Shown piece by piece: positions 12,941-30,298 of a DNA stretch of 32,000 nucleotides. Each line of letters opens with the position of its first letter. Position 1 is the stretch's first letter. The stretch is taken from NCBI GenBank assembly GCA_005768725.1, contig VAFM01000002.1, positions 342,924 to 374,923 on the forward strand. Direction: 5' to 3'. The notes under the pieces were generated by a model. That model was not told the DNA's origin and searched no databases. It saw only the letters and a program-made list of their open reading frames with translations. Both the position numbers and the translations under genes were made by a program. The stretch is from Blastochloris viridis. GTDB taxonomy: Bacteria > Pseudomonadota > Alphaproteobacteria > UBA2136 > UBA6156.

Positions 12941-13071
12941 CCGGCGCGAAGCGCCGTTGCCCCTGCGCGCGCGACTACAAACGGCCATCCAGATGTGATT
13001 TGGCGAAACGCCGTGTACACGTAGTACACAAGATTTGACAAAGCGCGTCTGGGGGCCGTTTTAGCCCGCGC
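12941..13071 (+). repeat. Hairpin-repeat family copy A (long form, inner stem degenerate) in the atpB-atpE spacer
   Basis: Aligns end to end with copy B. By hand count, 42 of the first 50 positions and 22 of the last 24 are identical. Shares the CCGTGTAC-loop-GTACA apex. Strand shown is the orientation as aligned. Confidence 0.8.
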
Positions 13072-13105
13072 CATTGCAAAGCAAAAGGCGCCTCAGCGCC
13101 CTTTC

Positions 13106-13876
13106 TTAGTGCCCGTGAATACTCTGATTCAGATAAACACAGGTCAACACCGTGAAAATATACGCCTGCAGCAACGCCACGAACACTTCCAGAGCGGTGA
13201 TGGCCACCAGCACGATCAGCGGCACCACGGCACTCGGTGCCAGAGCATAGTTCAGGCTGCCGCCGCCATCCAGGGTCAGTCCCAGCAGCATGATGCAGAA
13301 CGCCGCGAATACTTTCAGCAGCACGTGACCGGCAACCATGTTGGCAGCAAGACGAACCGCGAGAGTGGCCGGACGCACCAGGAAGGAGATGATTTCCAGC
13401 GGAACCATCAGCGGCAGCAGCCACCACGGAGTGCCATGGGGCACAAACATCGCAAAGAAATGCAGGCCCTGCTTATACACGCCCACGGTTACGATCAGGA
13501 TGAACACCATGATGCCCATATAGGCGGTGGTGGTGATCTGGCTGGTCGCGGTAAAGCTGTGCGGTACCATCCCGATCAGGTTCAGCGCCGCAATGAACAG
13601 GAAGGTGGTGATAATCAGCGGAAAGAACGCCATCGCTTCGCGCCCGGCGGTCTTTTCGGTCAGGTTCTGGATGAACTCGAAGGTGATCTCCACGAACGCC
13701 TGCCAGCGGCCCGGCACCATGGCCATGCGCAGGGTACCCATCAGCATGATCAGGATGACCGACGCCACACCGATACCGGTCCACAGCGTCTGGTTGGTGA
13801 TGGAAAGATCGAAACCACCGAGCACCAGCGGGTGCAGCGGGATTACTTCAAATTGGTGGAGCGGATTCAAAGCCAT
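13106..13876 (-). CDS. atpB: F0F1 ATP synthase subunit a
   Basis: LAVRLAANMVAGHVLL, with the essential Arg, plus a multi-TM profile. Confidence 0.93.
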   Translation of the reverse strand: MALNPLHQFEVIPLHPLVLGGFDLSITNQTLWTGIGVASVILIMLMGTLRMAMVPGRWQAFVEITFEFIQNLTEKTAGREAMAFFPLIITTFLFIAALNLIGMVPHSFTATSQITTTAYMGIMVFILIVTVGVYKQGLHFFAMFVPHGTPWWLLPLMVPLEIISFLVRPATLAVRLAANMVAGHVLLKVFAAFCIMLLGLTLDGGGSLNYALAPSAVVPLIVLVAITALEVFVALLQAYIFTVLTCVYLNQSIHGH

Positions 13877-14094
13877 GCCAGCCTTCTAGCAACCCTCCCT
13901 CGTCCCGTCAACCGCACTGTGCATGCCCGCGCCACGGAAAAACCGTGGCCCCGCCGCAACACTTTCACCAACCTTACCGAAAAGAGCCAAGTAATTCATA
14001 AAATTAAACTCCGATGACAAACGCTTTGACCGATGCTAGCGTCAAACTTCCTGAAAAATCTCATGCCTGCTTTTACGTTTCTACGAGGATCCCC

Positions 14095-14340
14095 ATGGCA
14101 ACGCTTTACATACTGGGCAAGTATCTGCCGCTCTTCGCCGCAATCGCCCTCGCCAAATACCTTTACGACAACATGCCTGTCGGCCTTTCCGGCACAGACA
14201 GCACCATTGGTCTACCCTACGGAAGCTGGATTCTTCTGTTCGCAGTAGACATCGCACTGTTCGTCGTGTTCATCATCATGTGCATCAAAGATCCCATCTC
14301 CTTCTCGGGAGGGCTTCATGAAAACAAAACGCATGACTAA
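14095..14340 (+). CDS. Hypothetical small membrane protein (81 aa, 2 TM)
   Basis: GAGGA lies 5 nt upstream of the ATG at 14095. C-ending codon bias is consistent with coding. Sequence MATLYILGKYLPLFAAIALAKYLY...WILLFAVDIALFVVFIIMCI. An alternative ATG at 14014 has no RBS. Confidence 0.5.
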   Translation: MATLYILGKYLPLFAAIALAKYLYDNMPVGLSGTDSTIGLPYGSWILLFAVDIALFVVFIIMCIKDPISFSGGLHENKTHD

Positions 14341-14416
14341 ACACGCCGAACACGCGTTCAACATCGTCAAAGTCGGTGCGGCTTTTCTCTTCATTGCGTG
14401 CATGTTGTTTATCTGA
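14318..14416 (+). CDS. Candidate 32-aa membrane peptide (MKTKRMTKHAEHAFNIVKVGAAFLFIACMLFI)
   Basis: GGGAGGG lies 4-5 nt upstream of the ATG at 14318. It overlaps the 3' end of the previous ORF in another frame, and a terminator follows about 25 nt later. It was too short for the ORF track; I read it directly from the sequence. Confidence 0.35.
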   Translation: MKTKRMTKHAEHAFNIVKVGAAFLFIACMLFI

Positions 14417-14437
14417 ACATGACGCACACACACCTCC

Positions 14438-14467
14438 AAAAAGGCCGGACACACGTCCGGCCTTTTT
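14438..14467. terminator. Bidirectional Rho-independent terminator
   Basis: AAGGCCGGAC-ACAC-GTCCGGCCTT, flanked by an A-run on the left and a T-run on the right. It lies between the plus-strand small ORFs and the minus-strand atpI/Z-like gene. Confidence 0.65.
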
Positions 14468-14485
14468 GCGGTCTATACGCACGCT

Positions 14486-14734
14486 CTAGCGCGGGCGTCG
14501 TGCCACACTCACAATCCAGCTCACAAATCCCAGCACACCGCCCAGCAGCATCAGCCACGGCAGGCTGCCAAGCCAGCGGTCAAGGGCAAACCCAATGCCG
14601 CCCATCAGCATTACGGCCACAACCAGCCGTAACCCCACTTCCACACCGGCCATAGAAGAAACGCCACCCTGCGGCGGCGTCTCATTCTGCCCGGGCTTAC
14701 TTGGCCGGGGCGGCAGTGCCGGTAGCTTTGGCAT
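14486..14734 (-). CDS. AtpZ/AtpI-family small membrane protein (ATP synthase protein I-like)
   Basis: Two TM helices with GGIGFALDRWLGSLPWLMLLGGVLG, the pattern of the ATPase_gene1 family. The start is ambiguous: ATG 14734 overlaps dsbA by 38 nt, and ATG 14653 would give 55 aa. Confidence 0.55.
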   Translation of the reverse strand: MPKLPALPPRPSKPGQNETPPQGGVSSMAGVEVGLRLVVAVMLMGGIGFALDRWLGSLPWLMLLGGVLGFVSWIVSVARRPR

Positions 14735-15446
14735 AGGCAGCTTCCAGAATCGGCTTCACTTCTTCATACGGCGCAGCACCGTCAATCTTCACACCATTCA
14801 CAAAGGTGGTCGGGGTGCCACGGATACCCAAGGTCTCGGTGGCGGTCTTCTTGCTGGCAGCGACACGCTCATGCAGGTCGGCATCCTTCACACAGGCTTC
14901 CACCTTGGCGCCATCCATCCCGAAGCCGGCAGCCACGCTCTTGATCTGCCCGAGCGGATCATTGCTGGTGACGATATTCATCTGGTTCTTGAAAAAGGCT
15001 TCCACAATCCCGTAGTACTGCTGGGCCGGGGCACAGCGGGCTACCTTGGTGATACCCACCGCCATGTCATCCCACGCCAGGTCGCGCAGTACGTACTTCA
15101 CCTTACCGGTGGCCACCCAGTCCTTTTTCACCTGCGGCATGGTCTTCAGCGTAAAGTCGGCGCAGTGGCTGCAGGTCATGCTGGCGTATTCGATCATGGT
15201 CACGGGGGCCATCATGCTCCCCATCACGCGGTCACCGGGCTGAATCTCCAGCACATTGCCCACATTGGCTACAGGCTGAGCCGCCGCTGCCGGTTTGGCC
15301 GCTGCGGCAGGCTTGCTGACCGCCGCCTTGGCGCTATCGAACCAGCCGCTCAACCAGCCGCCGTTATCTGCCGCCCAAGCCGCGCCGCCAATCACGGCGA
15401 TCCCTACAAACACGGCCGCAACCGTAATCTTTTTCATCATGAACAA
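14697..15446 (-). CDS. DsbA-family periplasmic thiol:disulfide oxidoreductase
   Basis: Signal peptide MFMMKKITVAAVFVGIAVIGGAAWA. Thioredoxin-fold CSHC active site within YASMTCSHCADF. Confidence 0.85.
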   Translation of the reverse strand: MFMMKKITVAAVFVGIAVIGGAAWAADNGGWLSGWFDSAKAAVSKPAAAAKPAAAAQPVANVGNVLEIQPGDRVMGSMMAPVTMIEYASMTCSHCADFTLKTMPQVKKDWVATGKVKYVLRDLAWDDMAVGITKVARCAPAQQYYGIVEAFFKNQMNIVTSNDPLGQIKSVAAGFGMDGAKVEACVKDADLHERVAASKKTATETLGIRGTPTTFVNGVKIDGAAPYEEVKPILEAAYAKATGTAAPAK

Positions 15447-15450
15447 TCCC

Positions 15451-15993
15451 CTATTTCGTGTTCTTGTCGTTCAAAATCTGCGATCCCAGTCCGGCCAGCG
15501 CCGCACGCAGATCATCATCGCGCACACTTTTGCACAAGCTTGCGGCCTTGTCACCCACCGCTGCGTTGGGGGGCGCCACCGGTGCGGTGCGCATACCCGT
15601 GCCCTGCCCCTGCGAGCGCTTCAGGTCATGCCGTGTAATGCCGCGCACCTTGCTGATGGCGGCGTAACCCAACAGTTTCGCGATACTCTCCACGATCTGC
15701 GGTGTCACATAGTGCAGCTCCTGCTTGACGCCATCACTCACCACCGCCACGGTCAGCACGTCGCCCTTCACGCTTTCCGGGCAGCTGTACTCGGCCAGTA
15801 ACGGGCAGATCGCGCGCCAGTGCGGCACGATCTGTGCCAGTAAAACCCCTTGCTTGGCCAACGCAGGCTGCACCAGCGGGGCCAGCACATTGCCCAGTGC
15901 CACACCGCGTTTCATACGCTCACCGGTTGCCACCACAGCTCCGCTAGAGGTCTTCTTAACCCCAGCCTTGCCCTTAGGTGCAACTTCGCTCAT
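15451..15993 (-). CDS. DUF721 (DciA-like) domain protein
   Basis: IVPHWRAICPLLAEYSCPESVKGDVLTVAVVSDGVKQELHYVTPQIVESIAKLLG fits the DUF721 pattern. Divergent to mutY. Confidence 0.65.
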   Translation of the reverse strand: MSEVAPKGKAGVKKTSSGAVVATGERMKRGVALGNVLAPLVQPALAKQGVLLAQIVPHWRAICPLLAEYSCPESVKGDVLTVAVVSDGVKQELHYVTPQIVESIAKLLGYAAISKVRGITRHDLKRSQGQGTGMRTAPVAPPNAAVGDKAASLCKSVRDDDLRAALAGLGSQILNDKNTK

Positions 15994-16011
15994 AAACTCA
16001 CCCTAACAGAT

Positions 16012-17043
16012 ATGAACACGCCCAACCATATTCCTGCCGAAAAGTTTCAAACCGCCCTGCTGGGCTGGTATGCGCGCGGCCATCGCGCCATGCCGTGGCG
16101 CGATGAAAACGCCTCTCCCTACCACATCTGGCTGGCCGAAGTGATGCTCCAGCAAACCACCGTCACGGCGGTGATTCCCTACTACCAGCGTTTTCTGCAC
16201 CGCTTCCCCACCCTGCAAAGCCTGGCCGAAGCCCCGATCGACGACGTCCTCCAGCACTGGCAAGGCCTGGGCTATTACCGCCGCGCGCATATGCTGCATA
16301 AGTGCGCCCAGACACTCATGCGCGACCACAATGGCCAGTTTCCGGTTACCGAAGCCGAGCTGTTGAACCTCCCCGGCCTTGGCCCCTACACCGCCGCCGT
16401 CATCGCCGCCACCGCCTTCAACACAGCGGCCAATGTGGTCGATGGCAACGTCGAGCGCGTCATCTCCCGCCTCTACCGCGTGCAGCAAGAGCTTCCCGCC
16501 GCCCGCACCACGCTGCGCAACCTCGCCGACCACCTCGCTTCACCTGCCGAACCCCGCCTGTACGCAAACGCTATCATGGAACTTGGCTCGCAGGTCTGCA
16601 CCCCCACAACCCCGCAGTGCCTGCTCTGCCCGGTGGCGCAGTGGTGCGAGGCTAACCAGCATGGCGACCAGACCACCTACCCGCGCAAAGCCCCCAAAAA
16701 GCAAACCCCGCACCATACCGCCACCGCGTGGCTCATCACCGATGCGAGCGGCCATATCTACCTCCAGCAACGCCCCGCCACCGGCCTGCTGGCTTCGCTC
16801 TACGAACTCCCCCACAGTGGCTGGGAACCCAAATCCACCCCGCAACAGGCCCCGCTTATGCTGGAGACCCAAACCGAATGCGGCAGCATCACCCACGTCT
16901 TCAGTCATTTTAAACTGACGCTCAATCTGCTGCACACCGAAGTCACCAACATTCCCGCCGCCAACCGCTTCCACCCGGAGGCTCTGCCCGCGCTCTCCAC
17001 ACTCATGCGCAAGGCCCTCACCCACGCCCTCAAACAAACCTAA
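16012..17043 (+). CDS. mutY: A/G-specific adenine DNA glycosylase MutY
   Basis: LLGWYARGHRAMPWR, MLQQTTV, HhH GLGPYTA, 4Fe-4S loop CTPTTPQCLLCPVAQWC, and a C-terminal NUDIX-like domain. I prefer the ATG at 16012; the track start at 15850 overlaps the divergent gene. Confidence 0.92.
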   Translation: MNTPNHIPAEKFQTALLGWYARGHRAMPWRDENASPYHIWLAEVMLQQTTVTAVIPYYQRFLHRFPTLQSLAEAPIDDVLQHWQGLGYYRRAHMLHKCAQTLMRDHNGQFPVTEAELLNLPGLGPYTAAVIAATAFNTAANVVDGNVERVISRLYRVQQELPAARTTLRNLADHLASPAEPRLYANAIMELGSQVCTPTTPQCLLCPVAQWCEANQHGDQTTYPRKAPKKQTPHHTATAWLITDASGHIYLQQRPATGLLASLYELPHSGWEPKSTPQQAPLMLETQTECGSITHVFSHFKLTLNLLHTEVTNIPAANRFHPEALPALSTLMRKALTHALKQT

Positions 17044-17044
17044 A

Positions 17045-17064
17045 AAGGCCGCTTACGCGGCCTT
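17045..17064. terminator. Hairpin between convergent mutY and the aminotransferase gene
   Basis: AAGGCCGC-TTAC-GCGGCCTT, with an A5 run to the left (a T-run for the minus strand). The stop codon of the minus-strand gene lies in the loop. Confidence 0.5.
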
Positions 17065-17943
17065 GGAATGGTCATCTCCACACTCCTGCGCCACACGCGC
17101 CGTAAACGCCTCCCGCAAGGCTCTGAACACCGGCGTCTGGGTCCGGTCATCACCGCCCGGCAGTACAACGTCGTTCAGGCTGCGCACCGGCACCATCTCG
17201 GCAATGCTGCCGCTGGTAAAGGCTTCGGTCGCACCGGCCAGTTCCGCCACGGTCACATCCCGCACCTCGGTGGCAATACCCAATTCCGCCGCCAACTCCA
17301 GAATCACACCGCGCGTGATCCCTTCCAGCATGCCGCTCTTGGCGGTAACAAGCTTATCGTTGATCACCGCAAAGAAGTTGCTGCGCGTAGCCTCGGTTAC
17401 AAAGCCCTGCGGAGTCGTGAACAGCACATCGTCATACGCCGTACCGGCACGCTTGGCCGCCACGTACCCGATGCCGTAATTCGCAGTCTTCACCTCCGGC
17501 AGTTCGCGGATCGCATCCACGCTCTTCAGGTTCTGGCCGCGCACATGGTTCTCCATGCCATACGCCGCCTGCGGGTGCTTCATGGTCACCGCATCTTCCA
17601 GAATATACAACTGCGGCGCAAAGTTCGTACACGCGGCCAGAGACAATCCCGATGGTGCCCCGCACTCCCCCGCCGTCACATACAGCTTCACCGCACTGTG
17701 CGGATAGGTATGCTGGGCCATCAACGTGGCAATCTGCTGCTCCAGCTCGGCCCGACTGAAGGGTAGTTCAATCCCCATCACCGCACACCCGCGCTCCAAG
17801 CGGTCAAGGTGCGGCCCCATCCGGAACGGCGTGCGCCCATACACGCGGAACAGTTCAAACACGGTAATCCCGCGCGCAAAGCCAAAATCACCCAGCGTCA
17901 CCGTGGGTTTGTCCGCCGTTAAAACACCGTTCACCATATACAT
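17053..17943 (-). CDS. Class IV (fold type IV) PLP aminotransferase (branched-chain / D-amino-acid aminotransferase or ADC-lyase family)
   Basis: TEATRSNFFAV...LEGITRGVILELAAELG...EAFTSGSIAEMVPV. Start is ATG 17943 or 17937, downstream of the epimerase stop. Confidence 0.85.
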   Translation of the reverse strand: MYMVNGVLTADKPTVTLGDFGFARGITVFELFRVYGRTPFRMGPHLDRLERGCAVMGIELPFSRAELEQQIATLMAQHTYPHSAVKLYVTAGECGAPSGLSLAACTNFAPQLYILEDAVTMKHPQAAYGMENHVRGQNLKSVDAIRELPEVKTANYGIGYVAAKRAGTAYDDVLFTTPQGFVTEATRSNFFAVINDKLVTAKSGMLEGITRGVILELAAELGIATEVRDVTVAELAGATEAFTSGSIAEMVPVRSLNDVVLPGGDDRTQTPVFRALREAFTARVAQECGDDHSKAA

Positions 17944-17971
17944 CGCAGCCACTTTTTTGTTTCTTAAAACT

Positions 17972-18901
17972 CTAAGACAACCACTGGCGCAAACCTGTTG
18001 CCAGATCCACCGGTTTCCACCCTGGGAATATTTGCCGCAGCAAGCTGATATCCGCACAGCTCAGCTTCACATCACTTTTGCGCGCCGGGCGATATTCCAC
18101 ACGGGGGTTCACACGCTTGATGGAAACGACCTGCCGGATGGTATCCAGCAGAGTAATCGCAATCCCGCTGCCCACATTCAGCACCCACGGCAACTCCACG
18201 GTCACAGGCGCCTGTACTAAGCCGCGGATAATCATCGCCACATCATGCACCGACACCAGATCCCGCGTCTGGCTGCCGTCGCCGTAAATCGTCAGCAACG
18301 TACCATTGGTCACGCTGTCCACCACCTTACTCAGCAAACCGCTATAACCGCCGTTCTCATCCTGTCCCGGCCCGTAGGCATTGAAGATCCGCAGTGTCGT
18401 CAACTTCAGGCCATACACATCCTTGTACATCCGCGCCAGCACTTCCCCGGCACGCTTGCTGGCGGCATAGGGGTTATTCAGGCTGACATTTCCGGCGTCT
18501 TCTTCCTTCACCGCACCATCGCTCAGGTTACCGTACACGGCGGCACTGCTGGCATAGATCACGCGGCCCCGCAGTTTCATGCGGCGCGCCGCTTCCAGCA
18601 CATGGAAGGTGCCCTGCACATTGGTAAGGTATACCTTGTCCGGGTTATCCAAGGCCTGCGGAATACTCACTATCGCGGCCAGATGGATCACGTGGTCGCA
18701 GCCCTGCATGGCCTTTTCCACCGTGGCCATATCGCTCACATCACCCTTGATGAACTCCATCTGGTTACCATGCGGAATCGCCTCGCGCTTGCTGGTGCTC
18801 AGATCATCCAGCACCACAATGTTATGGCCGCCAGCCACAAGCGCACGCACCACATAACTGCCGATGAACCCCGCACCACCCGTTACCAGAATCTTCGCCA
18901 T
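17972..18901 (-). CDS. NAD-dependent epimerase/dehydratase (UDP-sugar 4-epimerase-like)
   Basis: VTGGAGFIGS Rossmann motif; catalytic YAASKRAGE (YxxxK). Confidence 0.88.
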   Translation of the reverse strand: MAKILVTGGAGFIGSYVVRALVAGGHNIVVLDDLSTSKREAIPHGNQMEFIKGDVSDMATVEKAMQGCDHVIHLAAIVSIPQALDNPDKVYLTNVQGTFHVLEAARRMKLRGRVIYASSAAVYGNLSDGAVKEEDAGNVSLNNPYAASKRAGEVLARMYKDVYGLKLTTLRIFNAYGPGQDENGGYSGLLSKVVDSVTNGTLLTIYGDGSQTRDLVSVHDVAMIIRGLVQAPVTVELPWVLNVGSGIAITLLDTIRQVVSIKRVNPRVEYRPARKSDVKLSCADISLLRQIFPGWKPVDLATGLRQWLS

Positions 18902-18913
18902 ACTATTGTTCTC

Positions 18914-20636: not shown

Positions 20637-20727
20637 AACCTCATCTTTCCTAAATCTATGCCGCTGGCATTCTTCTTGGTGCGAGATACGAGCGAAGCGC
20701 GTTCATCTCGTAGCGCCAACCACCCAT

Positions 20728-20861
20728 CCGGCACGAAGCGACGTCGCCCCCGCGCGCGAGGCTATAAACGGCTATCCCGGTGCTTTTCCGGAAGGCGCCG
20801 TGTACAGGAAAAGGGTACATAAGCCATCCGGAAAAGTGCTGGGGAGCGTTTTAGCCCGCGC
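20728..20861 (+). repeat. Hairpin-repeat family copy B (long form, best folded) between slt and rnhB
   Basis: Nested stems: GCGCGAGGCTATAAACG/CGTTTTAGCCCGCGC, GCTTTTCCGGA/TCCGGAAAAG, GGC/GCC and TGTAC/GTACA. It ends 2 nt from the slt stop codon. Confidence 0.8.
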
Positions 20862-20863
20862 CT

Positions 20864-22888
20864 CTACTTAAGCGCCGTCTTACGGTTTCCATTATATTGA
20901 AGCGGCCAGTACCCGTCGGCCAACGCCGCCAAACTCCACGGCGTCTGCTTCATGCGCTGCTGGTACAACCAGTAGTTGGCAAACACCTTCTCCACATAAT
21001 CGCGGGTTTCATCAAACGGAATGCTTTCCAGCCACAGCATCGGGTCATGGCCCGGTGTCACGCCGCGCTCCAGCCAACGGCGCACGTTGCCAATACCCCC
21101 GTTGTACGCGGCCACCACCAACAACTGGTTACCGTCCAGTTTGTTATTCAGGTAATGCAGATAATCCTGCGCCAAGCCTAAGTTCGTCTCCGGGTCATGC
21201 AGATCAGCACGGGCGGGCAGGCTCTTACCGCTCAGCTTCGCAATGTACTTGGCGGTGGCTGGCATCAGCTGCATCAGGCCTTGGGCCCCCACACGGCTCC
21301 CGATCTGCGGGTTGAACGCGCTTTCCTGACGCATGATCCCCACCATCAGCGGACGGTCATACGTCCAGCCACCTTTCGGAGACCACTCTTCCGCCAGCGG
21401 GAACAACGCCGCCGGCATCACGGTGCCTTCTTCTTTAAGCTGCTTACCAGCGTACAACGCAGTGGCGGGCAGGCCCATGCGCACGGCAGCTGCCGCCAGC
21501 GTGCGGGTCGCCTGATAAGGCAGATCTTCATAGGCGGCACGCAACTGACGCTGCGCCATATCCACTTCCCCGATCTGTGCCAGCGCCAAACCACGACGGG
21601 CCGCCTTCACACGGGTCAACTGGTCAAAGCCGCGCGCATCCACATGGGGTACATCCCAATCCAGGCGCTGCGCTTTACCCAGCTTGGCGGCACTCAATTG
21701 ACCATAAAAACTCAACGGGTCACGCGCACCGGCTTCCAGCAGCGCCTTGGCACGGCTGTCCTGCTTCAGCTCGCTGTGAACACGTGCACCCCAGAACGCC
21801 GCACGCGCACTGTGGGTACCGGTCGCGGGCTCTTCACGCACCAGTTGGCTCCACTGTTCAGCTGCCGCGGTTTTGTTGCCCAGCATGTAGTGGCCATACC
21901 CGGCCAGCCAGCGGGCGTCGTCACGGTTTGGCCCCTTGGCGGTGCTGGCAGGCTCGGCCACACGCACCATCTCTTTCCACATGCGCTTGCCATGGTAAAA
22001 ATCAGCGATACGTACCAGCTCGCCCTGCCATTTGTCATCCCCGGCGGCACTGCGCACGCCGGACTGCAACATCACATCAGACGCTTCGCCATACTTACCC
22101 TGACCCCGCAGGCGCCAGCTCTGGCCCAATGCAGCACGCCCGGCCGCCGGCAACTTGGCCAGATCACCGGCCCGCGCCGCTTCCTGAGCAGCCCGGGTCG
22201 CTTCACGCTTTTCCATCACAAGGGTCTTTACCGGCATCGGCCCGTATTCGCCTTGTATCGAGCAACTTTGCTGGTCCACCTTCTTGCTGACCATCTTGCC
22301 GGTCTTCTTGTCTTTAACCTTCTTGGTCACCTGCTTGGTCTTGCACACGCGCTTGGGTGTTGCGCGCTTGGCCAGTGCTTCGTCGTACACCGCAGCCGCC
22401 ATCGGCAGGTCGCGGTAATCCTTCAACCAGCCATTCAGTTCACTGAACGTCGCACCGCGCTTGTTCATCAGATACAACCCGCGCACTTCGCCCAGCAGCA
22501 GGTTGTCCTCCACTTTCAGATTCGGAAATTCCCCACGCCGTGCACGGCTCATCGCTTCACGGTAAGCCTTGGCATCGCTGTTGCTCAGCACTTTCATGCC
22601 GCTGGCCGAAACCGCACGGGTTTCTGTTTTCTCAGTTTTCTGCGCTTTGGCAACCGGCGCGACAATTGCTTCCTTGCCGGTCACGCCTTCGCCGTCGGCC
22701 AGTTCATCACGTACTTCGTCCTTGATCTGCTCAGCACGCTCACCCAACAGGTCGGAAGACGGCGCATCCTCGTCACCCGCCGCCGGTTCAATCGCCGCAA
22801 GGCTCTGGTCATTGGCCGTGCCGCCCTGCATATCGGCGTAACCGACCGGTACCACCAGTAACGCTGCCAACAAACTCCACCGGATCAT
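20864..22888 (-). CDS. slt: Soluble lytic murein transglycosylase (Slt70-like)
   Basis: Signal peptide, a long superhelical N-terminal region, and the C-terminal SLT domain IMRQESAFNPQIGSRVGAQGLMQLMPATA. Confidence 0.9.
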   Translation of the reverse strand: MIRWSLLAALLVVPVGYADMQGGTANDQSLAAIEPAAGDEDAPSSDLLGERAEQIKDEVRDELADGEGVTGKEAIVAPVAKAQKTEKTETRAVSASGMKVLSNSDAKAYREAMSRARRGEFPNLKVEDNLLLGEVRGLYLMNKRGATFSELNGWLKDYRDLPMAAAVYDEALAKRATPKRVCKTKQVTKKVKDKKTGKMVSKKVDQQSCSIQGEYGPMPVKTLVMEKREATRAAQEAARAGDLAKLPAAGRAALGQSWRLRGQGKYGEASDVMLQSGVRSAAGDDKWQGELVRIADFYHGKRMWKEMVRVAEPASTAKGPNRDDARWLAGYGHYMLGNKTAAAEQWSQLVREEPATGTHSARAAFWGARVHSELKQDSRAKALLEAGARDPLSFYGQLSAAKLGKAQRLDWDVPHVDARGFDQLTRVKAARRGLALAQIGEVDMAQRQLRAAYEDLPYQATRTLAAAAVRMGLPATALYAGKQLKEEGTVMPAALFPLAEEWSPKGGWTYDRPLMVGIMRQESAFNPQIGSRVGAQGLMQLMPATAKYIAKLSGKSLPARADLHDPETNLGLAQDYLHYLNNKLDGNQLLVVAAYNGGIGNVRRWLERGVTPGHDPMLWLESIPFDETRDYVEKVFANYWLYQQRMKQTPWSLAALADGYWPLQYNGNRKTALK

Positions 22889-22891
22889 ACG

Positions 22892-24242: not shown

Positions 24243-24298
24243 GGCATATGCGGCAGCCCCTCAGGGCAGCGGTCTGAAGGGGGAAGTACCGCATATCC
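24243..24298 (-). other. Long nested hairpin in the trmD-rplS spacer (candidate leader or processing element)
   Basis: ATATGCGG (24246-24253) pairs with CCGCATAT (24289-24296). Inside it, CCCCT/AGGGG and CAG/CTG pair around a 9-nt loop. Confidence 0.4.
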
Positions 24299-24331
24299 CC
24301 CCCATTCGCAAGCACTTTTTGCAAAAAGCGC

Positions 24332-25027
24332 CTACTTCAGCTTCGCCGTCCGGCGCTTCGCCTCCGCCAAACGCCATTTCCGAATTTCCCCATGATTCCC
24401 ATTTCGCAGAACCTCAGGCACATCCTTACCTTCCCAGCTGACCGGCCGCGTATAATGCGGATACTCCACCAGCGGAGCCCCCGCTTCATCGACAATATCA
24501 AAGCTTTCCTCATGAAGGCTGGCATCACCCCCCAGCACGTTGGGCAACAGGCGCACCACGGCATCAACCACCACCATCGCCGCATTCTCACCGCCCGAAA
24601 GCACAAAATCACCCACCGAAACCACCTCGTCCACCTCGGCCTCCAGCACGCGCTCGTCAACCCCCTCATAGTGGCCGCACAGCACGATCAACCCCGTGCC
24701 TTCGGCAAAACGGCGCGCGGTGGGTTGCACAAAGCGCTGCCCTGCCGGGCCCATGTAAACCGTCTTCGCCCCAGGGTTCTCAGTCTTGGCGGCACGCAGG
24801 GCGGCCGCCACGATATCCGGCTTCAACACCATCCCGGCACCGCCACCGTAAGGGGTATCGTCCACGGTCTTGTGCTTGTCGTGGGCAAAGTCGCGCAGAT
24901 TCACGACCTTCAGGTCCCACGCCCCGGTTTTAAGCCCGCGGCCCAGCACACTCATGCCCAGCAAACCCGGAAAAGCCTCGGGGAACAACGTCACGATCGT
25001 CACGGTAAAGGGTGTTTTCATATCCAT
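24332..25027 (-). CDS. trmD: tRNA (guanine37-N1)-methyltransferase TrmD
   Basis: TLFPEAFPG, DDTPYGGGAGMVLKP, LVLCGHYEGVDERV and SVGDFVLSGGE motifs. Confidence 0.95.
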   Translation of the reverse strand: MDMKTPFTVTIVTLFPEAFPGLLGMSVLGRGLKTGAWDLKVVNLRDFAHDKHKTVDDTPYGGGAGMVLKPDIVAAALRAAKTENPGAKTVYMGPAGQRFVQPTARRFAEGTGLIVLCGHYEGVDERVLEAEVDEVVSVGDFVLSGGENAAMVVVDAVVRLLPNVLGGDASLHEESFDIVDEAGAPLVEYPHYTRPVSWEGKDVPEVLRNGNHGEIRKWRLAEAKRRTAKLK

Positions 25028-25067
25028 ACCAGCTCCTTACCATGCACCTCGCTTTGCCGCTACCCCC

Positions 25068-25096
25068 TTGCCATGGCAGGCCACGGCTCCTATATG
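25068..25096 (+). promoter_or_regulatory. Candidate sigma70-type promoter for the first receiver-like gene
   Basis: TTGCCA, 17-nt spacer, TATATG; about 75 nt upstream of the ATG at 25171. Confidence 0.3.
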
Positions 25097-25170
25097 CCAC
25101 CCACTGACCTCATGAAGAGTTAGTTTTTCCGCCCTTTTCCGCAACGCATGTCCTTCACGAGGAGAAACCC

Positions 25171-25590
25171 ATGGTTCATGCACAAATCCTTATTATCGAC
25201 GAAAACGCCCGCGCCCGCGCCCTGCTGGCCAAACAGCTGACCGACCTCGCCTACGATGTCCACACGGCCGACTCGCTGACCGACGCCCTGACCAAACTCA
25301 AGGCGGCCAATGCCGAGGACAAACCGTACGAGTGCATCTGCCTCGGCCCAATGGAGCGCACCAGCGGTCTGGGACGTAAAGTCCTCCGCGTCATCCGCCA
25401 ACAGAAGGGCTACGGCAAAACCATTGTCATCGGCGCCAGCCATGATGAATCCTTCTGGGCCCCGATGAAGGCTACGCGCAATTTTCTTACCGTGCCGTAC
25501 ACCGACTTCAAGGATTCCGAAGAACCGAAATGGGATACGCACACGCTGAAAAGCTACCTGCCGACCCCCAAGGTGATGGCGACCATCTGA
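25171..25590 (+). CDS. Stand-alone receiver-like (pseudo-receiver) domain protein
   Basis: GAGGAGA RBS. ILIIDEN...YECICLGPMERTSG...IVIGASHD. The REC fold pattern is present, but the phospho-acceptor position reads Gly (CLGPM) and the conserved Lys-Pro reads Val-Pro. Confidence 0.6.
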   Translation: MVHAQILIIDENARARALLAKQLTDLAYDVHTADSLTDALTKLKAANAEDKPYECICLGPMERTSGLGRKVLRVIRQQKGYGKTIVIGASHDESFWAPMKATRNFLTVPYTDFKDSEEPKWDTHTLKSYLPTPKVMATI

Positions 25591-25609
25591 CCCGCCATCT
25601 CACACCAAC

Positions 25610-25641
25610 GCAAAGCCCCGGCCTCACCGCCGGGGCTTTGC
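25610..25641 (+). other. Perfect 13-bp GC-rich hairpin after the first receiver-like gene (no T-tract)
   Basis: GCAAAGCCCCGGC-CTCACC-GCCGGGGCTTTGC, followed by CGTAGC. Confidence 0.5.
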
Positions 25642-25733
25642 CGTAGCGGGAGGCTTGTGTTGACGCCTCTTCAGGTATACACATAGAGCATATATCCATC
25701 TGCACCATTCCTCGCATCACGGAAGGACAGACC

Positions 25734-26141
25734 ATGTTCCGCATTCTGCTGATTGAAGACGACCTGCCTGCCCAGACCGAACTGGCCGAAGCCCTCCGCG
25801 CACTGGACATCCAAGTCGATACTGCTGCTAACCCGCGCGAAATCGAGGCGCATCTCAAAACCTGCGAGACACGCCCCTACCATGTGGTTCTCACCGACTA
25901 CTGGCTTAACTGGAATAGTCATAGTGTGAGCGGCGATTACACCTACCGGGAGATCCGCCTCAGCTGCGGCAACACCCTACCGATCATCGCCGCCAGCTCC
26001 GATATGCCGATGTGGGAAAACCTGAAAGCCAAAAAGAACGACCCGCACTTGCATCTCATCGCCAAGATTCCCCGCGGCCATGGTTCCTTCTGGAATGCCG
26101 ACGCCACCATACTGCTGCTCAGAAAGCTCCTGCCTCTCTGA
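25734..26141 (+). CDS. Single-domain response regulator receiver protein (CheY-like, atypical insertion)
   Basis: GGAAGGA RBS. ILLIEDD, VVLTDYWL (Asp present), PIIAASSD, and IAKIP (Lys-x-Pro). There is an insertion, NWNSHSVSGDYTYREIRLSCGN, between the Asp strand and the Ser/Thr strand. Confidence 0.7.
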   Translation: MFRILLIEDDLPAQTELAEALRALDIQVDTAANPREIEAHLKTCETRPYHVVLTDYWLNWNSHSVSGDYTYREIRLSCGNTLPIIAASSDMPMWENLKAKKNDPHLHLIAKIPRGHGSFWNADATILLLRKLLPL

Positions 26142-26155
26142 ACCTGCATCAAAAG

Positions 26156-26186
26156 AAAAACCCCGGACCAATGGTCCGGGGTTTTT
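26156..26186. terminator. Bidirectional Rho-independent terminator (convergent receiver gene and nrdB)
   Basis: AAAAA-CCCCGGACC-AAT-GGTCCGGGG-TTTTT. Confidence 0.75.
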
Positions 26187-26199
26187 CTGCGCCATGCAA

Positions 26200-27282
26200 T
26201 TAGGCGTCGCTCTTGCCAAATTCCTGCAGAGGCTTGAACACATTCGCCAGCTTGCTCTCCTCCCAGGTCTGGTTGTTAACCGGGCTGACAGCCGACTCGA
26301 TCGTGCTGCTTTCCAGCATGGCGTCAAAGGCTTCGTCCCAGTTACCGCGGGTGCTGGCCTTGGCGTACTCGGTGGCGCGCTGTTCAAAGAAGTTGGCGTG
26401 CTCGTCGGCGTTCAGCATCAGGTCCATCCACGGCAGCGGGTTCTTCTCGATGTTGTAAACCGGGTCGATGTTCAGGCTGCGCAGACGACGGTCGGCGATG
26501 AAGCGGATGTAGTTCTGTACATCCTGCGGGGTCATGCCTTCGATCGGGCCCATTTCAAACGCGAGGTCGATGAACTTGTCTTCCATCTCCACGATCTTCT
26601 TGCAGGCGTCGGTGATCTCGGTCTTCAGGCGGTCGGTCCAGATGCTCGGGTTTTCCGACACAAAGGTGTTGAACAGCTTGATCATGCTCTGCACGTGCAG
26701 GGTTTCGTCACGTACACTCCAGGTCACGATCTGGCCCATGCCCTTCATCTTGTTGAAGCGCGGGAAGTTCATCAGCATCGCAAAGCTGGCGAAGAGCGAC
26801 AGACCTTCGGTGAAAGCCGCAAAGATGGCCATGGCCACGGCAATGCTGTGGTCGTCATCGACGTTCACGCTGTGCAGGAAGTCGTACTTGTCCTTCATTT
26901 CCGAGTATTCCATGAAAGCAGAGTATTCGGTTTCCGGCATACCGATGGTGTCCAGCAGGTGGCTGTAGGCCGCAATGTGCACGGTTTCCATGTTGGCAAA
27001 GCTGGTCATCATCATCAGCACTTCGGTGCTCTTGAACACCTGGGTGAAGTACTTGAGGTAGGCGCCGTTCACTTCCACGTCGCTCTGGGTGAAGAAGCGG
27101 AAGATCTGGGTCAGCAGGTTCTTTTCAGCGGCATTCAGCTCGGTGTTCCATTGCTTCACGTCGTCTGCCATCGGCACTTCTTCCGGCAGCCAGTGAATAC
27201 GCTGCTGCATCAGCCAGCTTTCATAGGCCCACGGGTAGTCAAACGGCTTGTAACCTACGCGTTCTACTTTCAAATTGGCCAT
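26200..27282 (-). CDS. nrdB: Class Ia ribonucleotide reductase beta subunit
   Basis: Ferritin-like di-iron motifs. FANMETVHIAAYSHLL has E-x2-H plus Tyr four residues after the His, the radical site. GGAAGGA RBS before the ATG at 27282; the track start at 27372 adds 30 aa and has no RBS. Confidence 0.93.
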   Translation of the reverse strand: MANLKVERVGYKPFDYPWAYESWLMQQRIHWLPEEVPMADDVKQWNTELNAAEKNLLTQIFRFFTQSDVEVNGAYLKYFTQVFKSTEVLMMMTSFANMETVHIAAYSHLLDTIGMPETEYSAFMEYSEMKDKYDFLHSVNVDDDHSIAVAMAIFAAFTEGLSLFASFAMLMNFPRFNKMKGMGQIVTWSVRDETLHVQSMIKLFNTFVSENPSIWTDRLKTEITDACKKIVEMEDKFIDLAFEMGPIEGMTPQDVQNYIRFIADRRLRSLNIDPVYNIEKNPLPWMDLMLNADEHANFFEQRATEYAKASTRGNWDEAFDAMLESSTIESAVSPVNNQTWEESKLANVFKPLQEFGKSDA

Positions 27283-27521
27283 GGTATGTCCTTCCTTTTC
27301 TCGTTGTTTGGCATGGGCCTTGTGGGTCACTTTCGCGGCCGCAGGCTCAAAATTGATGACACTTGCTGTCATGGTGTCGCCCTTCCCTTGTTACGTAAAG
27401 GCAGCTTCTTGAGTCTGTCTTTACCCCCTCGAACTCCAGGTTTGGATTTTTCCAAATCCTTCGCTCAAAATGTCTTTAAGCAGAGGTTTTATGCACCCCT
27501 TTTTCCGTGCATTCAACCCTT

Positions 27522-27551
27522 ATTTTAAAGGGGATATTTGATATTTATCAA
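27522..27551 (-). promoter_or_regulatory. Candidate sigma70-type promoter inside the nrdA-nrdB spacer
   Basis: On the minus strand: TTGATA, 18-nt spacer, TAAAAT, within the only AT-rich stretch of the spacer. The -35 element overlaps the inverted repeat TTTGAT-ATTT-ATCAAA. Confidence 0.3.
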
Positions 27552-27650
27552 ACCGATAAACACCATCTATCGCCACAAAAAATCCGTACCTCTCCGCATC
27601 ACACGGAAGAGGCACGGACAATCACTTTTGGCAGCCGCACATCGGCTGCA

Positions 27651-27748
27651 CTCGGCGGGATGAGGCGGTGCTTTTTACTTTGGCGCCGTGTACGAAAGAG
27701 AGGGTACATCAGCCAAAGTAAAAAGTGCCGGATCGCCCGTCCGATGCG
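27651..27748 (+). repeat. Hairpin-repeat family copy C, directly after the nrdA stop
   Basis: GCTTTTTACTTTGGC-GCCG-TGTAC-GAAAGAGAGG-GTACA-TCA-GCCAAAGTAAAAAG(T)GC, plus the outer stem CGGCGGGAT..CGG / CCG..ATC(G)CCCG(T)CCG. It ends 6 nt from the nrdA stop codon. Confidence 0.65.
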
Positions 27749-27754
27749 GCCGAA

Positions 27755-29557
27755 TTATTGGCAGGCAAGGCACTCTTCGTACTTCTGGGCTCCGCCATCA
27801 GTCCCCGTCGCCTTCAGCTGCACCTGCTGCTTCGGCTGGTTGCCTGGCAAGCTCACAACTTCAGCACGCTGCAGACTCTTGCTGCGGCAGTAGTACATGC
27901 TCTTGATGCCCTTCTTCCACGCCATGTAGTGCAGCATGTGCAGGTCGCGCTTGTGCACGTCGGCGGGCAGGAAGACGTTGAGGCTTTGCGCTTGGCAGAT
28001 GAACGGCGTGCGGTCGGCGGCATGTTCGATGATCCAGCGCTGATCGAGTTCGAAGGCGGTCTTGAACACGTCCTTCTCGGCATCGGTCAGGAAGTCGAGG
28101 TGCATCACGCTGCCACCATTCACCGTAATGCTGGTCCAGGTGTCTTCGTCGTCCATGTTGTACTTCTGCAGAACCTTCTTCAGGTGCTTGTTACGCACGT
28201 TAAAGGTGCCTTCCAGAGTCTTGTGGTTGTAGCTGTTGGAAGGATACGGCTCGATACCCGGGCTGGCGTTACCGCAGTAGATGCTGGAGCTCGCATTCGG
28301 CGCGATGGCGATCTTGTGGGAGAAACGCTCCTTCACCAGCATTTCGGCGGCGTCGGGGTTCGGGCCACGCTCTTCGGCAAGCTGCACGCTGGCCTTGTCG
28401 GCGTGCTCCTTGATGTACTTGAACATCTTCTTGTTCCAGACCTTGGCCATCACGCTTTCAAACGGAATGCCCTTCATCTGCAGGAAGCTGTGGAAGCCCA
28501 TGGCACCCAGACCCACGGCACGTTCACGCATGGCGCTGTAACGGGCGCGTTCCATGGCTTGCGGCGCACGGTCAATAAAGTCCTGCAGAATGTTGTCCAG
28601 GTAGCGCATCAGGTCTTCGATGAACTGCGGCTCCTGGCTCCATTCTTCAAAGTATTCCAGGTTGACCGAGCTCAGGCAGCACACGGCGGTGCGCTCTTTG
28701 TTGTATTGGTCAAGGCCGGTCGGCAGAACGATTTCGCAGCACAGGTTGCTCATCTTAACGCTCAGGCCGGCCTTCTTCTGGTAATCGGGCAGGAACTTGT
28801 TCACGTTGTCGATGAACAGCAGGTACGGCTCGCCCTGTTCCATACGGCTGGTCAGCAGCTTGATCCAGATATAGCGGGCCTTGACCTGCTTGATGACCGC
28901 ACCGGTCTTCGGGCTCTTCAGGTCGTACAGGCTGTCGGTTTCCACGGCACGCATAAATTCGTCATCAATCACAACGGCATTGTGCAGGTACAAAGCCTTA
29001 CGCATCGGGTCGCCACCGGTGGGCTTACGGATGTCGATGAATTCTTCAATTTCCGGGTGGTTGACGTTCAGATACACAGCGGCGGCACCACGACGGGCAC
29101 TGCCTTGGTCAATGGCGCGGGTCATGGAGTCCTGCACGACGATGAACGGTACGATACCGGTGGTCTTGCCGTTGATACCGACCTTTTCACCGATGGAGCG
29201 GATCTGGCTCCAGTTGGTCCCGATACCACCACCATTGGAGGAAATGGCAACGTTCTCGTTCCAGGTGCTGGTAATGCCCTGCATGCTGTCGGTCACTTCA
29301 TTCAGGAAGCAGGAGATCGGCAGAGCACGGGTCGCACCGCCGTTGGCCAGTACCGGGGTGGCGGGCACAAACCACAGCTTGCTCATATAGTCATACAGGC
29401 GCTGGGCGTGGGCGCTGTCATCGGCGTAGGCTTTGGCCACACGGGCAAAGGCGTCCTGCGGCTTTTCACCAGGCAATAAGTAACGGTCACGCAAGGTGGC
29501 TTTACCAAAGTCGGTAAGCAGGTTTTCGCGGTCGTAATCCACCTGAACGTCGTACAT
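27755..29557 (-). CDS. nrdA: Class Ia ribonucleotide reductase alpha subunit (short form, no N-terminal ATP-cone seen)
   Basis: NLLTDFGKATLRDRYLL at the N-terminus, PISCFL, catalytic SNLCCEI, and a C-terminal CLAC redox pair. I prefer the ATG at 29557 (MYDVQVDY...); 29617 is an alternative. Confidence 0.93.
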   Translation of the reverse strand: MYDVQVDYDRENLLTDFGKATLRDRYLLPGEKPQDAFARVAKAYADDSAHAQRLYDYMSKLWFVPATPVLANGGATRALPISCFLNEVTDSMQGITSTWNENVAISSNGGGIGTNWSQIRSIGEKVGINGKTTGIVPFIVVQDSMTRAIDQGSARRGAAAVYLNVNHPEIEEFIDIRKPTGGDPMRKALYLHNAVVIDDEFMRAVETDSLYDLKSPKTGAVIKQVKARYIWIKLLTSRMEQGEPYLLFIDNVNKFLPDYQKKAGLSVKMSNLCCEIVLPTGLDQYNKERTAVCCLSSVNLEYFEEWSQEPQFIEDLMRYLDNILQDFIDRAPQAMERARYSAMRERAVGLGAMGFHSFLQMKGIPFESVMAKVWNKKMFKYIKEHADKASVQLAEERGPNPDAAEMLVKERFSHKIAIAPNASSSIYCGNASPGIEPYPSNSYNHKTLEGTFNVRNKHLKKVLQKYNMDDEDTWTSITVNGGSVMHLDFLTDAEKDVFKTAFELDQRWIIEHAADRTPFICQAQSLNVFLPADVHKRDLHMLHYMAWKKGIKSMYYCRSKSLQRAEVVSLPGNQPKQQVQLKATGTDGGAQKYEECLACQ

Positions 29558-29968
29558 GTCCGTTTCTTTCTCTCTAGTCTTATCGTCGTCGGCGTTACCC
29601 TTTCTCAACACATCCAACCATGGGGGTTTGTTGGGTGCGGTTTCAGAAAGTCATTGGCTTACACCTGGCTTTCCAAACGGGGGTTCCGCGCTCGGAGAGG
29701 GGGCAGAAGACCCTCCCCCCAACCTTGTCGAACACGCGGTACCACTCTTAGTCGTCTGGTACCGTTCTTACGGTAGGGGAGGCGGCGCTCAATCAGCTCT
29801 CTCTCCGGTATGTCGGCATCATTCCCTTATTCCCTCCCCCTGCCAAGACCCATTAAGTCATTGATGTTTCCACCAACACGCTGAAAATAGGCACCTACCT
29901 GCCCACATTTTAAGCATCCACCAGCACCCCTTACCTACTACCCACTGTGTCTTTTACGCGCACCCAAC

Positions 29969-29982
29969 CACTATATATAGTG
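29969..29982. promoter_or_regulatory. NrdR-box-like perfect palindrome upstream of nrdA
   Basis: CACTATATATAGTG is a perfect 14-bp palindrome. It matches the published NrdR box consensus acaCwAtATaTwGtgt (quoted from memory). A weaker second site, CTAGATTTTG, lies at 30000-30009. Confidence 0.6.
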
Positions 29983-30012
29983 CACACACATCATACCTAC
30001 TAGATTTTGAAT

Positions 30013-30055
30013 TTATCCCCAACCGTCACCACATTCAGTGGTGTTATCCCCAACC
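30013..30055. promoter_or_regulatory. Two 12-bp direct repeats containing DnaA-box-like TTATCCCCA, flanking an inverted repeat
   Basis: TTATCCCCAACC occurs at 30013-30024 and 30044-30055 (31-bp period). CACCAC-ATTCA-GTGGTG lies between them at 30027-30043. Confidence 0.35.
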
Positions 30056-30131
30056 CACAAAAACACACCTAACACCAAACCCTTCCCCGAGGCATCAAAA
30101 CCTTAGATATCCATCTCCTTCACTCATGCCG

Positions 30132-30160
30132 AAAAAGAATCCGCCCGCCAAAGGCGGGCG
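30132..30160 (-). terminator. Rho-independent terminator downstream of the TPR gene and repeat copy D
   Basis: CGCCCGCC-TTT-GGCGGGCG on the minus strand, followed by GATTCTTTTT. Confidence 0.65.
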
Positions 30161-30174
30161 TTGATGCGGATCCG

Positions 30175-30298
30175 GAACTCGCTGAGCGGGAGGGATTTTT
30201 CGTTTTCTTCCGTTGCCGAGCACCGTAAATGTACAAACAGTACATGCGGAGCGCATGGCGGCGGAAAAAACGGAAAAGCACCCGGCTCAGTAGAGTTC
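30175..30298 (+). repeat. Hairpin-repeat family copy D (diverged), directly after the TPR gene stop
   Basis: Apex CCGT-AA-ATGTAC-AAACA-GTACAT-GCGG. Outer stems GAACTC/GAGTTC, CTGAGC/GCTCAG and GGG/CCC. T-rich and A-rich middle arms. It ends 2 nt from the stop codon. Confidence 0.5.

Follow-up and report, generated by a model that had tools for sequence, protein, structure and literature searches.

The Correia elements of Neisseria, also called CREE or NEMIS, were the first bacterial MITEs (miniature transposable elements with inverted repeats) to be described, and we know of no explanation, since 1988, of how they move. They were described as unique to Neisseria in a 2016 paper (PMC5039591). 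CREE are reported to have IHF sites, promoters, and an unknown transposase (PMC2649163, PMC10969869), and their transcribed hairpin to be bound or cut by RNase III (PMC2649163). Here we analyze four long hairpins, A to D, in a stretch of 32,000 nt from an alphaproteobacterial contig (VAFM01000002.1, positions 342,924 to 374,923 of the forward strand; hereafter, the window), each of which lies next to the stop codon of a minus-strand gene. The hairpins are a widely distributed variant of the palindromic MITE/REP class, tied to the Correia elements through their core, and not a wholly new kind of element. What is new, relative to the published descriptions that we compared, is the conservation of the hairpin tip across phyla, a pairing constraint that acts on one strand, and an orientation linked to replication.

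Integron attC sites are imperfect hairpins of 57-141 nt located right after the stop codon of an open reading frame (ORF), and what folds and is used is their antisense strand with respect to the mRNA. The window hairpins likewise follow stop codons, with a folding strand antisense to the mRNA. However, attC sites conserve the foot (RYYYAAC / GTTRRRY) and vary at the apex, whereas the window elements conserve the apex and have feet that differ among A/B, C, and D. The window also lacks a cassette array or integrase, and the neighbors of the hairpins are housekeeping genes (atp, slt, nrd, and a gene with tetratricopeptide repeats, TPR).

The REP/REPIN-RAYT system, in which RAYTs (IS200-like Y1 transposases) mobilize the repeats, resembles the window elements in consisting of non-coding, palindromic repeats that lack terminal repeats and target duplications. 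REPs and REPINs occur mainly after genes and between convergent or co-directional genes, persist vertically, and are thought to act as single-stranded DNA hairpins (PMC3733652, PMC3116915). Elements of the window type share this placement and vertical persistence and are likewise proposed to act as single-stranded DNA hairpins. However, REPs are 20-40 nt long with a GTAG or CGTC tag and a REPIN consists of two inverted, self-palindromic REPs, whereas the arms of the window elements are not self-palindromic, carry no GTAG, and conserve the apex and not the foot. The small hairpin on the 5' side of the window elements was considered as a CGTC-tagged REP (PMC3733652) and rejected, its CGTC/CGTT tag being partly paired and A-T first pairs being absent. 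The enterobacterial ERICs are imperfect palindromes that are co-transcribed with their neighbors, those at gene 3' ends in Yersinia affecting transcript levels, and the pneumococcal SPRITE is a repeat resembling an intrinsic terminator (PMC10969869). Neither ERIC (IRU) nor SPRITE is related in sequence to the window elements, and no apex conserved across phyla or replication-linked orientation is reported for either of them.

Three hairpins of one family and a sister subfamily

All four hairpins were located where the sequence-only reading, an earlier annotation of the window, had placed them. They are imperfect hairpins of 108-138 nt, all on the + strand. Folds were compared as RNA with dinucleotide-preserving shuffles (z scores from -5.25 to -8.55), and family membership was scored with R1, a covariance model built from 22 related alphaproteobacterial copies. 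The elements and their parts are as follows.

12939..13079, + strand: element A, whole unit; R1 128.7 bits, E 1e-28; fold -64.6 kcal/mol, z -5.25
12942-12956, + strand: small hairpin in the 5' part of A, which reads TCCG, small hairpin, CGTTGCCCC
~12967-13071, + strand: long hairpin of A; apex CGCCGTGTAC-ACGTA-GTACACAAG at 13009-13032
20726..20869, + strand: element B; R1 145.9 bits; fold -73.8 kcal/mol, z -5.88
20727-20748, + strand: degenerate 5' module of B
20754-20861, + strand: long hairpin of B; apex 20796-20823
27645..27752, + strand: long hairpin of element C; apex 27684-27712; fold -64.4 kcal/mol, z -8.55
27607-27758, + strand: R1 match of element C; 68.0 bits
30170..30300, + strand: element D, separate subfamily; apex CCGTAAATGTAC-AAACA-GTACATGCGG; fold -68.6 kcal/mol, z -8.40

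The complement strands of A, B, C, and D fold more weakly (-62.3, -63.7, -46.9, and -53.7 kcal/mol, in that order), and the + strand is also the more stable one under DNA energy parameters. The shared GTAC apex was recovered as well: the window has five occurrences of GTAC-N(3-14)-GTAC where 1.36 would be expected, and the tips of A to D make up four of them.

On the + strand A, B, and C have the R1 scores listed above, against 15-24 bits when these loci are scored on the reverse strand. Over 81 nt, A and B share 77% identity, and C has the inner arms and tip of A and B combined with outer arms of a different type. D scored 10.8 bits (E = 0.53), which rules it out as a member of the A/B/C model. 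The earlier view that the four copies form one repeat family is thus upheld for A, B, and C, and we retain D as a sister subfamily. D shares the TGTAC/GTACA apex helix and, as in A, has the 5' frame TCCG-hairpin-CGTTG. A homologue of D, 87% identical, lies at another locus of a related genome, between atpF and rpmE (L010 1028-1129; loci of other genomes are given as L numbers); it too is oriented antisense, and its outer stem shows compensating changes. B has an orthologous copy at L004 1769-1936, and C has orthologous copies in L085 and L022, in which the inner helix has been replaced yet is still complementary.

Read on the + strand, the unit has a small GC hairpin in a TCCG...CGTYG frame and then, beyond a short spacer, an imperfect hairpin of 105-125 nt. 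Its best-conserved part is the apex, (G)CGCCG-TGTAC-loop-GTACA-YAAG(C); attC, kink-turn, sarcin-ricin, and UAA/GAN motifs were rejected for the apex loop by inspection. A search of 210 kb of alphaproteobacterial loci with R1 found 34 copies at E < 1e-10, including variants outside the exact apex pattern used below. No described RNA family was matched: Rfam gave no match in the window at the gathering score and, at E up to 10, nothing relevant around A or in L023, L043, and L100. A weak R1 match at 26110-26200 is the nrdB terminator palindrome and not a family member; this palindrome, perfect over 17 bp (26154-26188, AGAAAAACCCCGGACCA / TGGTCCGGGGTTTTTCT) and located after nrdB, is a two-way terminator.

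The hairpin tip recurs across phyla and in Correia elements

Scanning one genome per species with the exact apex pattern CGCCGTGTAC-N(4-12)-GTACAYMAGMY returned 101 sequence blocks. Counting as elements those motif-centered hairpins in which 36 or more nested pairs fall within 62 nt to either side, we obtained 72 distinct apex-centered long hairpins in 31 genomes, the window included. Multicopy families are present in several alphaproteobacterial metagenome-assembled genomes (MAGs) and in Clostridia, among them AnMBR.bin542 with 14 copies, RGIG2385 with 6, and Peptococcaceae UBA7702 with 4. One copy each was seen in Betaproteobacteria, Gammaproteobacteria (Pseudomonadales), Silvanigrellales, Myxococcales, Negativicutes, and Lactobacillales. 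Matches in Streptomyces and other Actinomycetota lie in coding sequence, form no hairpin, and look like chance. A blastn search of a plasmid collection with element B and one clostridial copy gave no match.

In the viral contigs L112-L123, the motif matches lie in elements bounded by TATAGTGGATT(A/C)AA...TTAATCCACTATA, the Correia terminal repeats, and in a Neisseria sp. (L061) the same apex is centered between TATAGTGGATT...AATCCACTATA. The apex of these Correia-bounded elements is exactly that of the window, CGCCGTGTAC-N5-GTACATAAG. The published gonococcal CREE of 106-107 bp has the same terminal repeats as these elements (PMC2649163 supplement), and its center is related, reading ...GCAGACAGTAC-AGATA-GTACGGCAAGGCG... 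in reverse complement, again with GTAC-N5-GTAC (PMC2649163). Alignment of CREE with betaproteobacterial copies without Correia ends showed that both have AAGGCG, a variable helix, the tip, a variable helix, and GCAACGC in common. The tip is therefore the center of the Correia core, and the hairpins, in which the sequence-only reading did not recognize a described REP/BIME/RIME/ERIC family, do have known relatives, their apex being the center of Correia/NEMIS elements in some Neisseria. Apex and architecture make the window copies remote members of a Correia-core superfamily, set apart by their outer arms. For the 26-bp terminal repeat of Correia elements (TATAGTGGATTAA...), the window has two matches at up to three mismatches, against 2.25 expected, and none of them is at the elements.

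Both window elements and CREE are multicopy, measure ~105-155 bp, form a long hairpin, and lie near or inside transcription units. In both, a directional conserved core is centered on GTAC-N5-GTAC, and the transposase is known for neither. They differ in that the window copies have unrelated outer arms and an extra module with a small hairpin and terminator, and in that most of them follow genes, gonococcal CREE being found mainly in front of genes (PMC2649163). Taken together, it is very probable that the hairpins are a mobile or dispersed repeat related to the Correia core.

Some individual loci deserve description. In MAGs of gut Alphaproteobacteria (L053 7278-7627, L049 5014-5145, L082, L108 34-376), an apex hairpin in sense orientation lies directly upstream of the ribosome-binding site of typA/bipA, with three tandem copies in L053, and in this clade the copies may act as a leader element. 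Betaproteobacterial copies occur in rRNA-operon spacers (L074 1675-1806, L052 343-473, L072 ~3741-3767, L094 574-709), where they adjoin or separate tRNA-Ile and tRNA-Ala in either orientation. L029 and L087 have an orthologous copy between groES and groEL, and the clostridial copy at L081 ~7380-7440 (minus strand) has an insertion of ~45 nt in the 3' arm right after GTACATAAG.

Pairing is conserved with a bias for one strand

Covariation was analyzed in an alignment of 33 distinct alphaproteobacterial copies and 38 pairs, which was model-based, being fitted to R1. The stems covary, as the sequence-only reading had proposed: 95% of the cells are paired, and both sides have changed in 31 of the 38 pairs. 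Double changes number 181 cells, against 42 in shuffles (0/500), and sliding the 3' partners by 1-3 columns lowers the pairing to 34-49%. Across phyla, double changes are seen at 10 of 17 consensus pairs. Even the apex helix shows covariation, with TGTAC/GTACA changed to AATAC/GTATT in two copies, and the length of the apex loop ranges from 4 to 12 nt among copies.

The non-Watson-Crick pairs, traced earlier in B and C as G:T on the + strand, are predominantly of this kind across the alignment. With the tip pair excluded, the + strand has 97 G·U and 3 A·C cells, and leaving out the three positions with a conserved wobble (columns 78-150, 84-144, and 85-143) still gives a ratio of 36:3. G·U exceeds A·C in 33/33 alphaproteobacterial elements. 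Since these pairs are G·U on the + strand, the mRNA strand has A·C mismatches in their place, and the bias opposes the local mutational skew, the minus strand being G- and T-rich. This pattern indicates that the + strand, and not the mRNA, is the strand kept foldable, and backs the suggestion that the folded species is something other than the adjacent mRNA 3' untranslated region (UTR).

Orientation follows the chromosome strand

The sequence-only reading described the four copies as all having one orientation, each abutting the stop codon of a minus-strand gene. All four are indeed on the + strand; the orientation, however, tracks the chromosome strand (33/33 copies) and not the gene. The + (pattern) strand has a negative GC skew, that is, it is C-rich, at 33/33 alphaproteobacterial copies and 60/72 copies overall. 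In the window the skew of the + strand is strong and uniform (-0.03 to -0.31; -0.1 to -0.3 in loci of related MAGs) and stays negative where genes lie on the + strand (positions 1-6000), and it therefore reflects replication. The well-folding strand is thus the C-rich strand and leading-strand template in 33/33 copies.

One copy, L002 17520-17664, lies between two '-' genes in independent gene calls, and is one that follows a gene on the pattern strand; in our own calls the upstream HTH gene was missed and the start of the 713-aa downstream gene was placed inside the element. Further copies that follow pattern-strand genes are those of L086, L054 (3543-3688), and L017, according to crude gene calls. 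Orientation appears to follow replication rather than gene direction. In elements derived from IS200/IS605 (PATE), the active folding strand is on the lagging-strand template, whereas the folding strand of the window family is on the leading-strand template in all 33 copies.

Placement after stop codons and a terminator module on the mRNA strand

In 27/72 elements a stop codon is found at 45-70 nt from the apex, which is at or within ~15 nt of the hairpin foot, as opposed to 2/72 in the mirrored position. The test considers opposite-strand ORFs of at least 100 codons, the mirror being a same-strand ORF that ends before the 5' foot. Our own gene calls are crude and misassign some flanking genes, and the placement rests on this symmetric stop-codon test and on independent calls. 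After-stop placement recurs in several phyla, in line with the placement at gene 3' ends claimed for the window. The excess of copies in antisense after a stop codon arises mainly because the neighboring genes lie mostly on the leading strand.

In the window, the distances from the hairpins to the stop codons of the minus-strand genes are 34 nt (A), 2 nt (B), 6 nt (C), and 2 nt (D), as first read from the sequence, and Pfam confirmed the identities of the genes.

13106..13876, - strand: atpB (ATP synthase A chain), stop codon precedes A; PF00119, E 1e-59
13087..13100, either strand: terminator-like hairpin GGCGCCTCAGCGCC, small and two-way, separating A from the atpB stop codon (13106)
20864..22888, - strand: slt (lytic transglycosylase), stop CTA 20864-20866 abuts B; PF01464
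26200-27372, - strand: nrdB; PF00268
27755..29617, - strand: nrdA (ribonucleotide reductase large chain), stop codon abuts C; PF02867, PF00317
30301..31989, - strand: TPR-repeat gene, stop codon abuts D; Pfam TPR families

The gap of 34 nt between A and the atpB stop codon is due to the small hairpin at 13087..13100. Among these genes, the atp set of the window is split into atpI-B-E-F followed by rpmE, and the ATP synthase c subunit (12531-12797) has an N-terminal extension of ~20 residues. The nrdA ORF (27755-29617) has just 620 codons, and an ATP-cone domain was not detected in it.

No T-tract had been noted after the copies. This holds on the + strand, but the minus (mRNA) strand has a GC hairpin with a T-run beyond each of A, C, and D.

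12930..12956, - strand: distal terminator of A, stem CGGCGC-TTC-GCGCCG then GATTTCTTTTTT; scan match 12956-12942, tail GATTTCTTTT
27577..27618, - strand: distal terminator of C, CCGTGCCTCTTCCG-TGTGATG-CGGAGAGGTACGG and ATTTTTT; hairpin 27618-27584, T-run 27582-27577
27551-27522, - strand: promoter-like site for nrdB beyond the C terminator, TTGATA-18-TAAAAT, 10/12
30132..30169, - strand: 5' module of D, a terminator, CGCCCGCC-TTT-GGCGGGCG and GATTCTTTTT; hairpin 30160-30142, 8 GC pairs

Along the mRNA strand the stop codon comes first, then the long hairpin, and then the terminator. The A-type terminator module recurs in other copies when the 5' modules of relatives are aligned. CGGAT followed by a T-run is common to the modules of A, C, and D but is missing from the native terminator of the relatives' empty atpB-atpE spacer, from which it appears that the terminator module belongs to the element. 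B has a degenerate 5' module without a T-run. The small 5' hairpins (window 12942-12956 and relatives) have GAA or GCA triloops closed by C-G (GCGAAGC, GCGCAGC), which on the + strand we take to be DNA mini-hairpins of a type with unusual stability.

Gain and loss among close relatives

An identical AtpE protein is encoded on contigs of uncultured Alphaproteobacteria (e.g., GCA_027485835.1). With AtpE identical in all, the atpB-atpE spacer measures 131 nt without an element (L002, L003, L009, and L010) and 308 or 341 nt with an A-type element, which is present in the window and five contigs, including L001, L004, L006, and L008. L004 has an additional copy at the 3' end of rnhB that is absent from L001; there the stop codon has been pushed into the element, which parts two genes that overlap in L001. 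Conversely, the spacer of the window (3061-3116) that is orthologous to the site of the L002 copy 17520-17664 holds none. Close relatives have therefore both gained and lost elements. Neither TA nor any other direct repeat flanks A to D or the compared filled sites, comparisons that are blurred by divergence.

In L007 the atpB-atpE spacer is also 341 nt long and contains an unrelated repeat of ~200 nt (1533-1874), a second copy of which lies at L007 2804-2900. Sequence comparison marks this spacer (window 12797-13106) as an insertion hotspot for hairpins or repeats within the atp operon. The 12-bp sub-apical helix of C (27660-27684 / 27712-27736), compared with L085 and L022, has little in common between the orthologues (5/12 and 6/12 identical); the adjacent nrdA coding sequence is 91% identical, and the arms of the helix are still complementary. 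The change looks like a block replacement, perhaps by conversion between copies. Tail-fiber-like genes of differing lengths (Peptidase_S74, Gp34_trimer) lie between fliJ and cheR in L001 (15407-16468) and L005 (5157-8546) and are absent in L002 and L003, making this a variable locus beside flagellar and chemotaxis genes.

A proposed replication-linked hairpin and the alternatives

The reading that we favor, with a probability of about one half, is that of a non-autonomous hairpin element kept by a strand-specific, replication-linked process acting on single-stranded DNA, with side effects on mRNA 3' ends. A to D are copies of a dispersed palindromic element in an uncultured alphaproteobacterium, and the selected structure would be the single-stranded DNA hairpin of one defined strand. 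This hairpin would be used in a propagation or maintenance step coupled to replication, its apex being recognized by a putative factor. Copies would persist mainly after stop codons and in intra-operon spacers because insertions there are least harmful. Where the upstream gene lies on the leading strand, its transcript would receive the weaker hairpin of the complementary strand and, after it, the terminator of the element itself. The element would thereby also shape mRNA 3' ends, for which Correia hairpins and RNase III are a precedent. The minus-strand transcripts of A to D are predicted to form long imperfect duplexes (-46.9 to -63.7 kcal/mol), which by analogy with Correia elements are possible substrates of RNase III. 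A MITE that prefers gene 3' ends, one of the roles listed at first, comes close to this account and agrees with the after-stop placement.

Several observations weigh against it. The copies are related, so the shuffle statistics overstate their independence. The G·U bias is lacking or inverted among the single-copy relatives of other phyla (54 for the pattern strand vs 100 for the complement), and the strand rule may hold just for multicopy families. Replication direction was read from GC skew alone, and the known routes of single-stranded DNA transposition (IS200/IS605, REP/RAYT) would predict the opposite strand. Clustering of 1,912 ORFs from 101 loci revealed no transposase or other recurrent gene beside the copies; the annotated recurrent neighbor clusters are translational GTPases (EF-G, IF2, BipA) and groES/groEL. 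A tblastn search of ~0.9 Mb of loci with IS200 TnpA and RAYT queries found nothing relevant. A clean insertion with target duplication or terminal repeats was seen in 0/3 filled/empty comparisons, each of which shows that part of the spacer was replaced, and for this reason transposition is inferred rather than demonstrated. Finally, the homology to Correia elements rests on an apex of ~25-35 nt, the shared architecture, and the betaproteobacterial intermediates, and R1 scores the Neisseria copies at just 19-28 bits.

A wider and more speculative proposal, which we consider possible but doubtful, is that the window hairpins, the Correia elements, and the copies of Clostridia and other phyla form one ancient superfamily. 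In all of them recognition and conservation would center on the apex of the single-stranded hairpin instead of the termini, and the elements would be copied or maintained in a strand-specific, replication-coupled manner by an enzyme so far linked to no mobile element. A host factor for single-stranded DNA or for replication, or a route through reverse transcription, are the candidate drivers.

The alternative that survives best, though we regard it as unlikely, is that the selected molecule is the mRNA: a 3'-UTR or intercistronic hairpin that stabilizes the upstream message, serves as an RNase III site, supplies a terminator, and spread since it is useful there. Its location speaks for this, 2-34 nt after stop codons and, in three of the four cases, before a hairpin and T-run on the mRNA strand, as do the after-stop asymmetry in the 72 elements (27 vs 2), the occupation of spacers where differential expression is found (atpB-atpE, nrdA-nrdB, groES-groEL), and the binding or cutting of Correia mRNA hairpins by RNase III (PMC2649163). 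However, at the positions where the + strand pairs G·U the mRNA strand has A·C mismatches (97:3), its folding is poorer by 2-18 kcal/mol, and B is without a T-run. The orientation on the DNA strand is constant (33/33) even where the flanking gene lies on the other strand, and therefore the RNA made differs among loci. This chromosome-strand orientation speaks against the mRNA-stabilizer role, and likewise against the small-RNA role, as the selected function.

Covariation could also be a by-product of the palindrome, through template switching within a strand or gene conversion between arms or copies, the hairpins being inert remnants. In favor of this, the inner helix at the nrdA site is just 5/12 and 6/12 identical yet complementary, and changes in a block-like manner beside nrdA 3' ends that are 91% identical; clean insertion borders were also not found. 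However, the conserved bulges, the asymmetric internal loop, and the wobble positions that stay fixed would not survive copying between arms, which also leaves unexplained both the 97:3 strand bias against mutational skew and the conservation of the apex across phyla. Palindrome self-copying may contribute, but as the whole explanation we find it improbable.

Still somewhat less probable is that each copy encodes an RNA on the + strand, either an antisense or small RNA or a cis-regulatory leader, with the G·U pairs resulting from selection on that RNA. The + strand folds well, some relatives have copies in sense orientation within the typA/bipA 5' leader or with tRNA genes on either side, and Correia elements are reported to carry promoters (PMC2649163). 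The window speaks against such an RNA, having no promoter-like site upstream of A to D and no terminator after B, C, and D on the + strand; Rfam gave no match at either threshold, and an orientation locked to the replication strand is not predicted. A duplex-DNA binding site or cruciform for a dimeric protein on TGTAC...GTACA, the protein site of the sequence-only reading, is very improbable even though the apex is a perfect 5-bp inverted repeat conserved across phyla, because half-sites spaced by 4-12 nt that covary to AATAC/GTATT beside an asymmetric internal loop do not suit it and a strand bias is meaningless for duplex DNA.

Implications

Correia elements influence gene expression in pathogenic Neisseria. 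Their central hairpin is common to multicopy elements of Alphaproteobacteria, other Betaproteobacteria, Clostridia, and further phyla, in which the outer arms have been replaced while pairing has been kept, and this moves the functional focus from the terminal repeats to the core. For annotation, the elements explain the unusually long spacers in the atp, nrd, and groESL operons and supply terminators. In the alphaproteobacterial copies, the wobble bias together with the constant orientation predicts a strand-specific, single-stranded intermediate, and the cultured carriers Methylotenera versatilis and Formivibrio citricus make this prediction testable. If the elements do form one superfamily, its enzyme would also explain the movement of the Correia elements.

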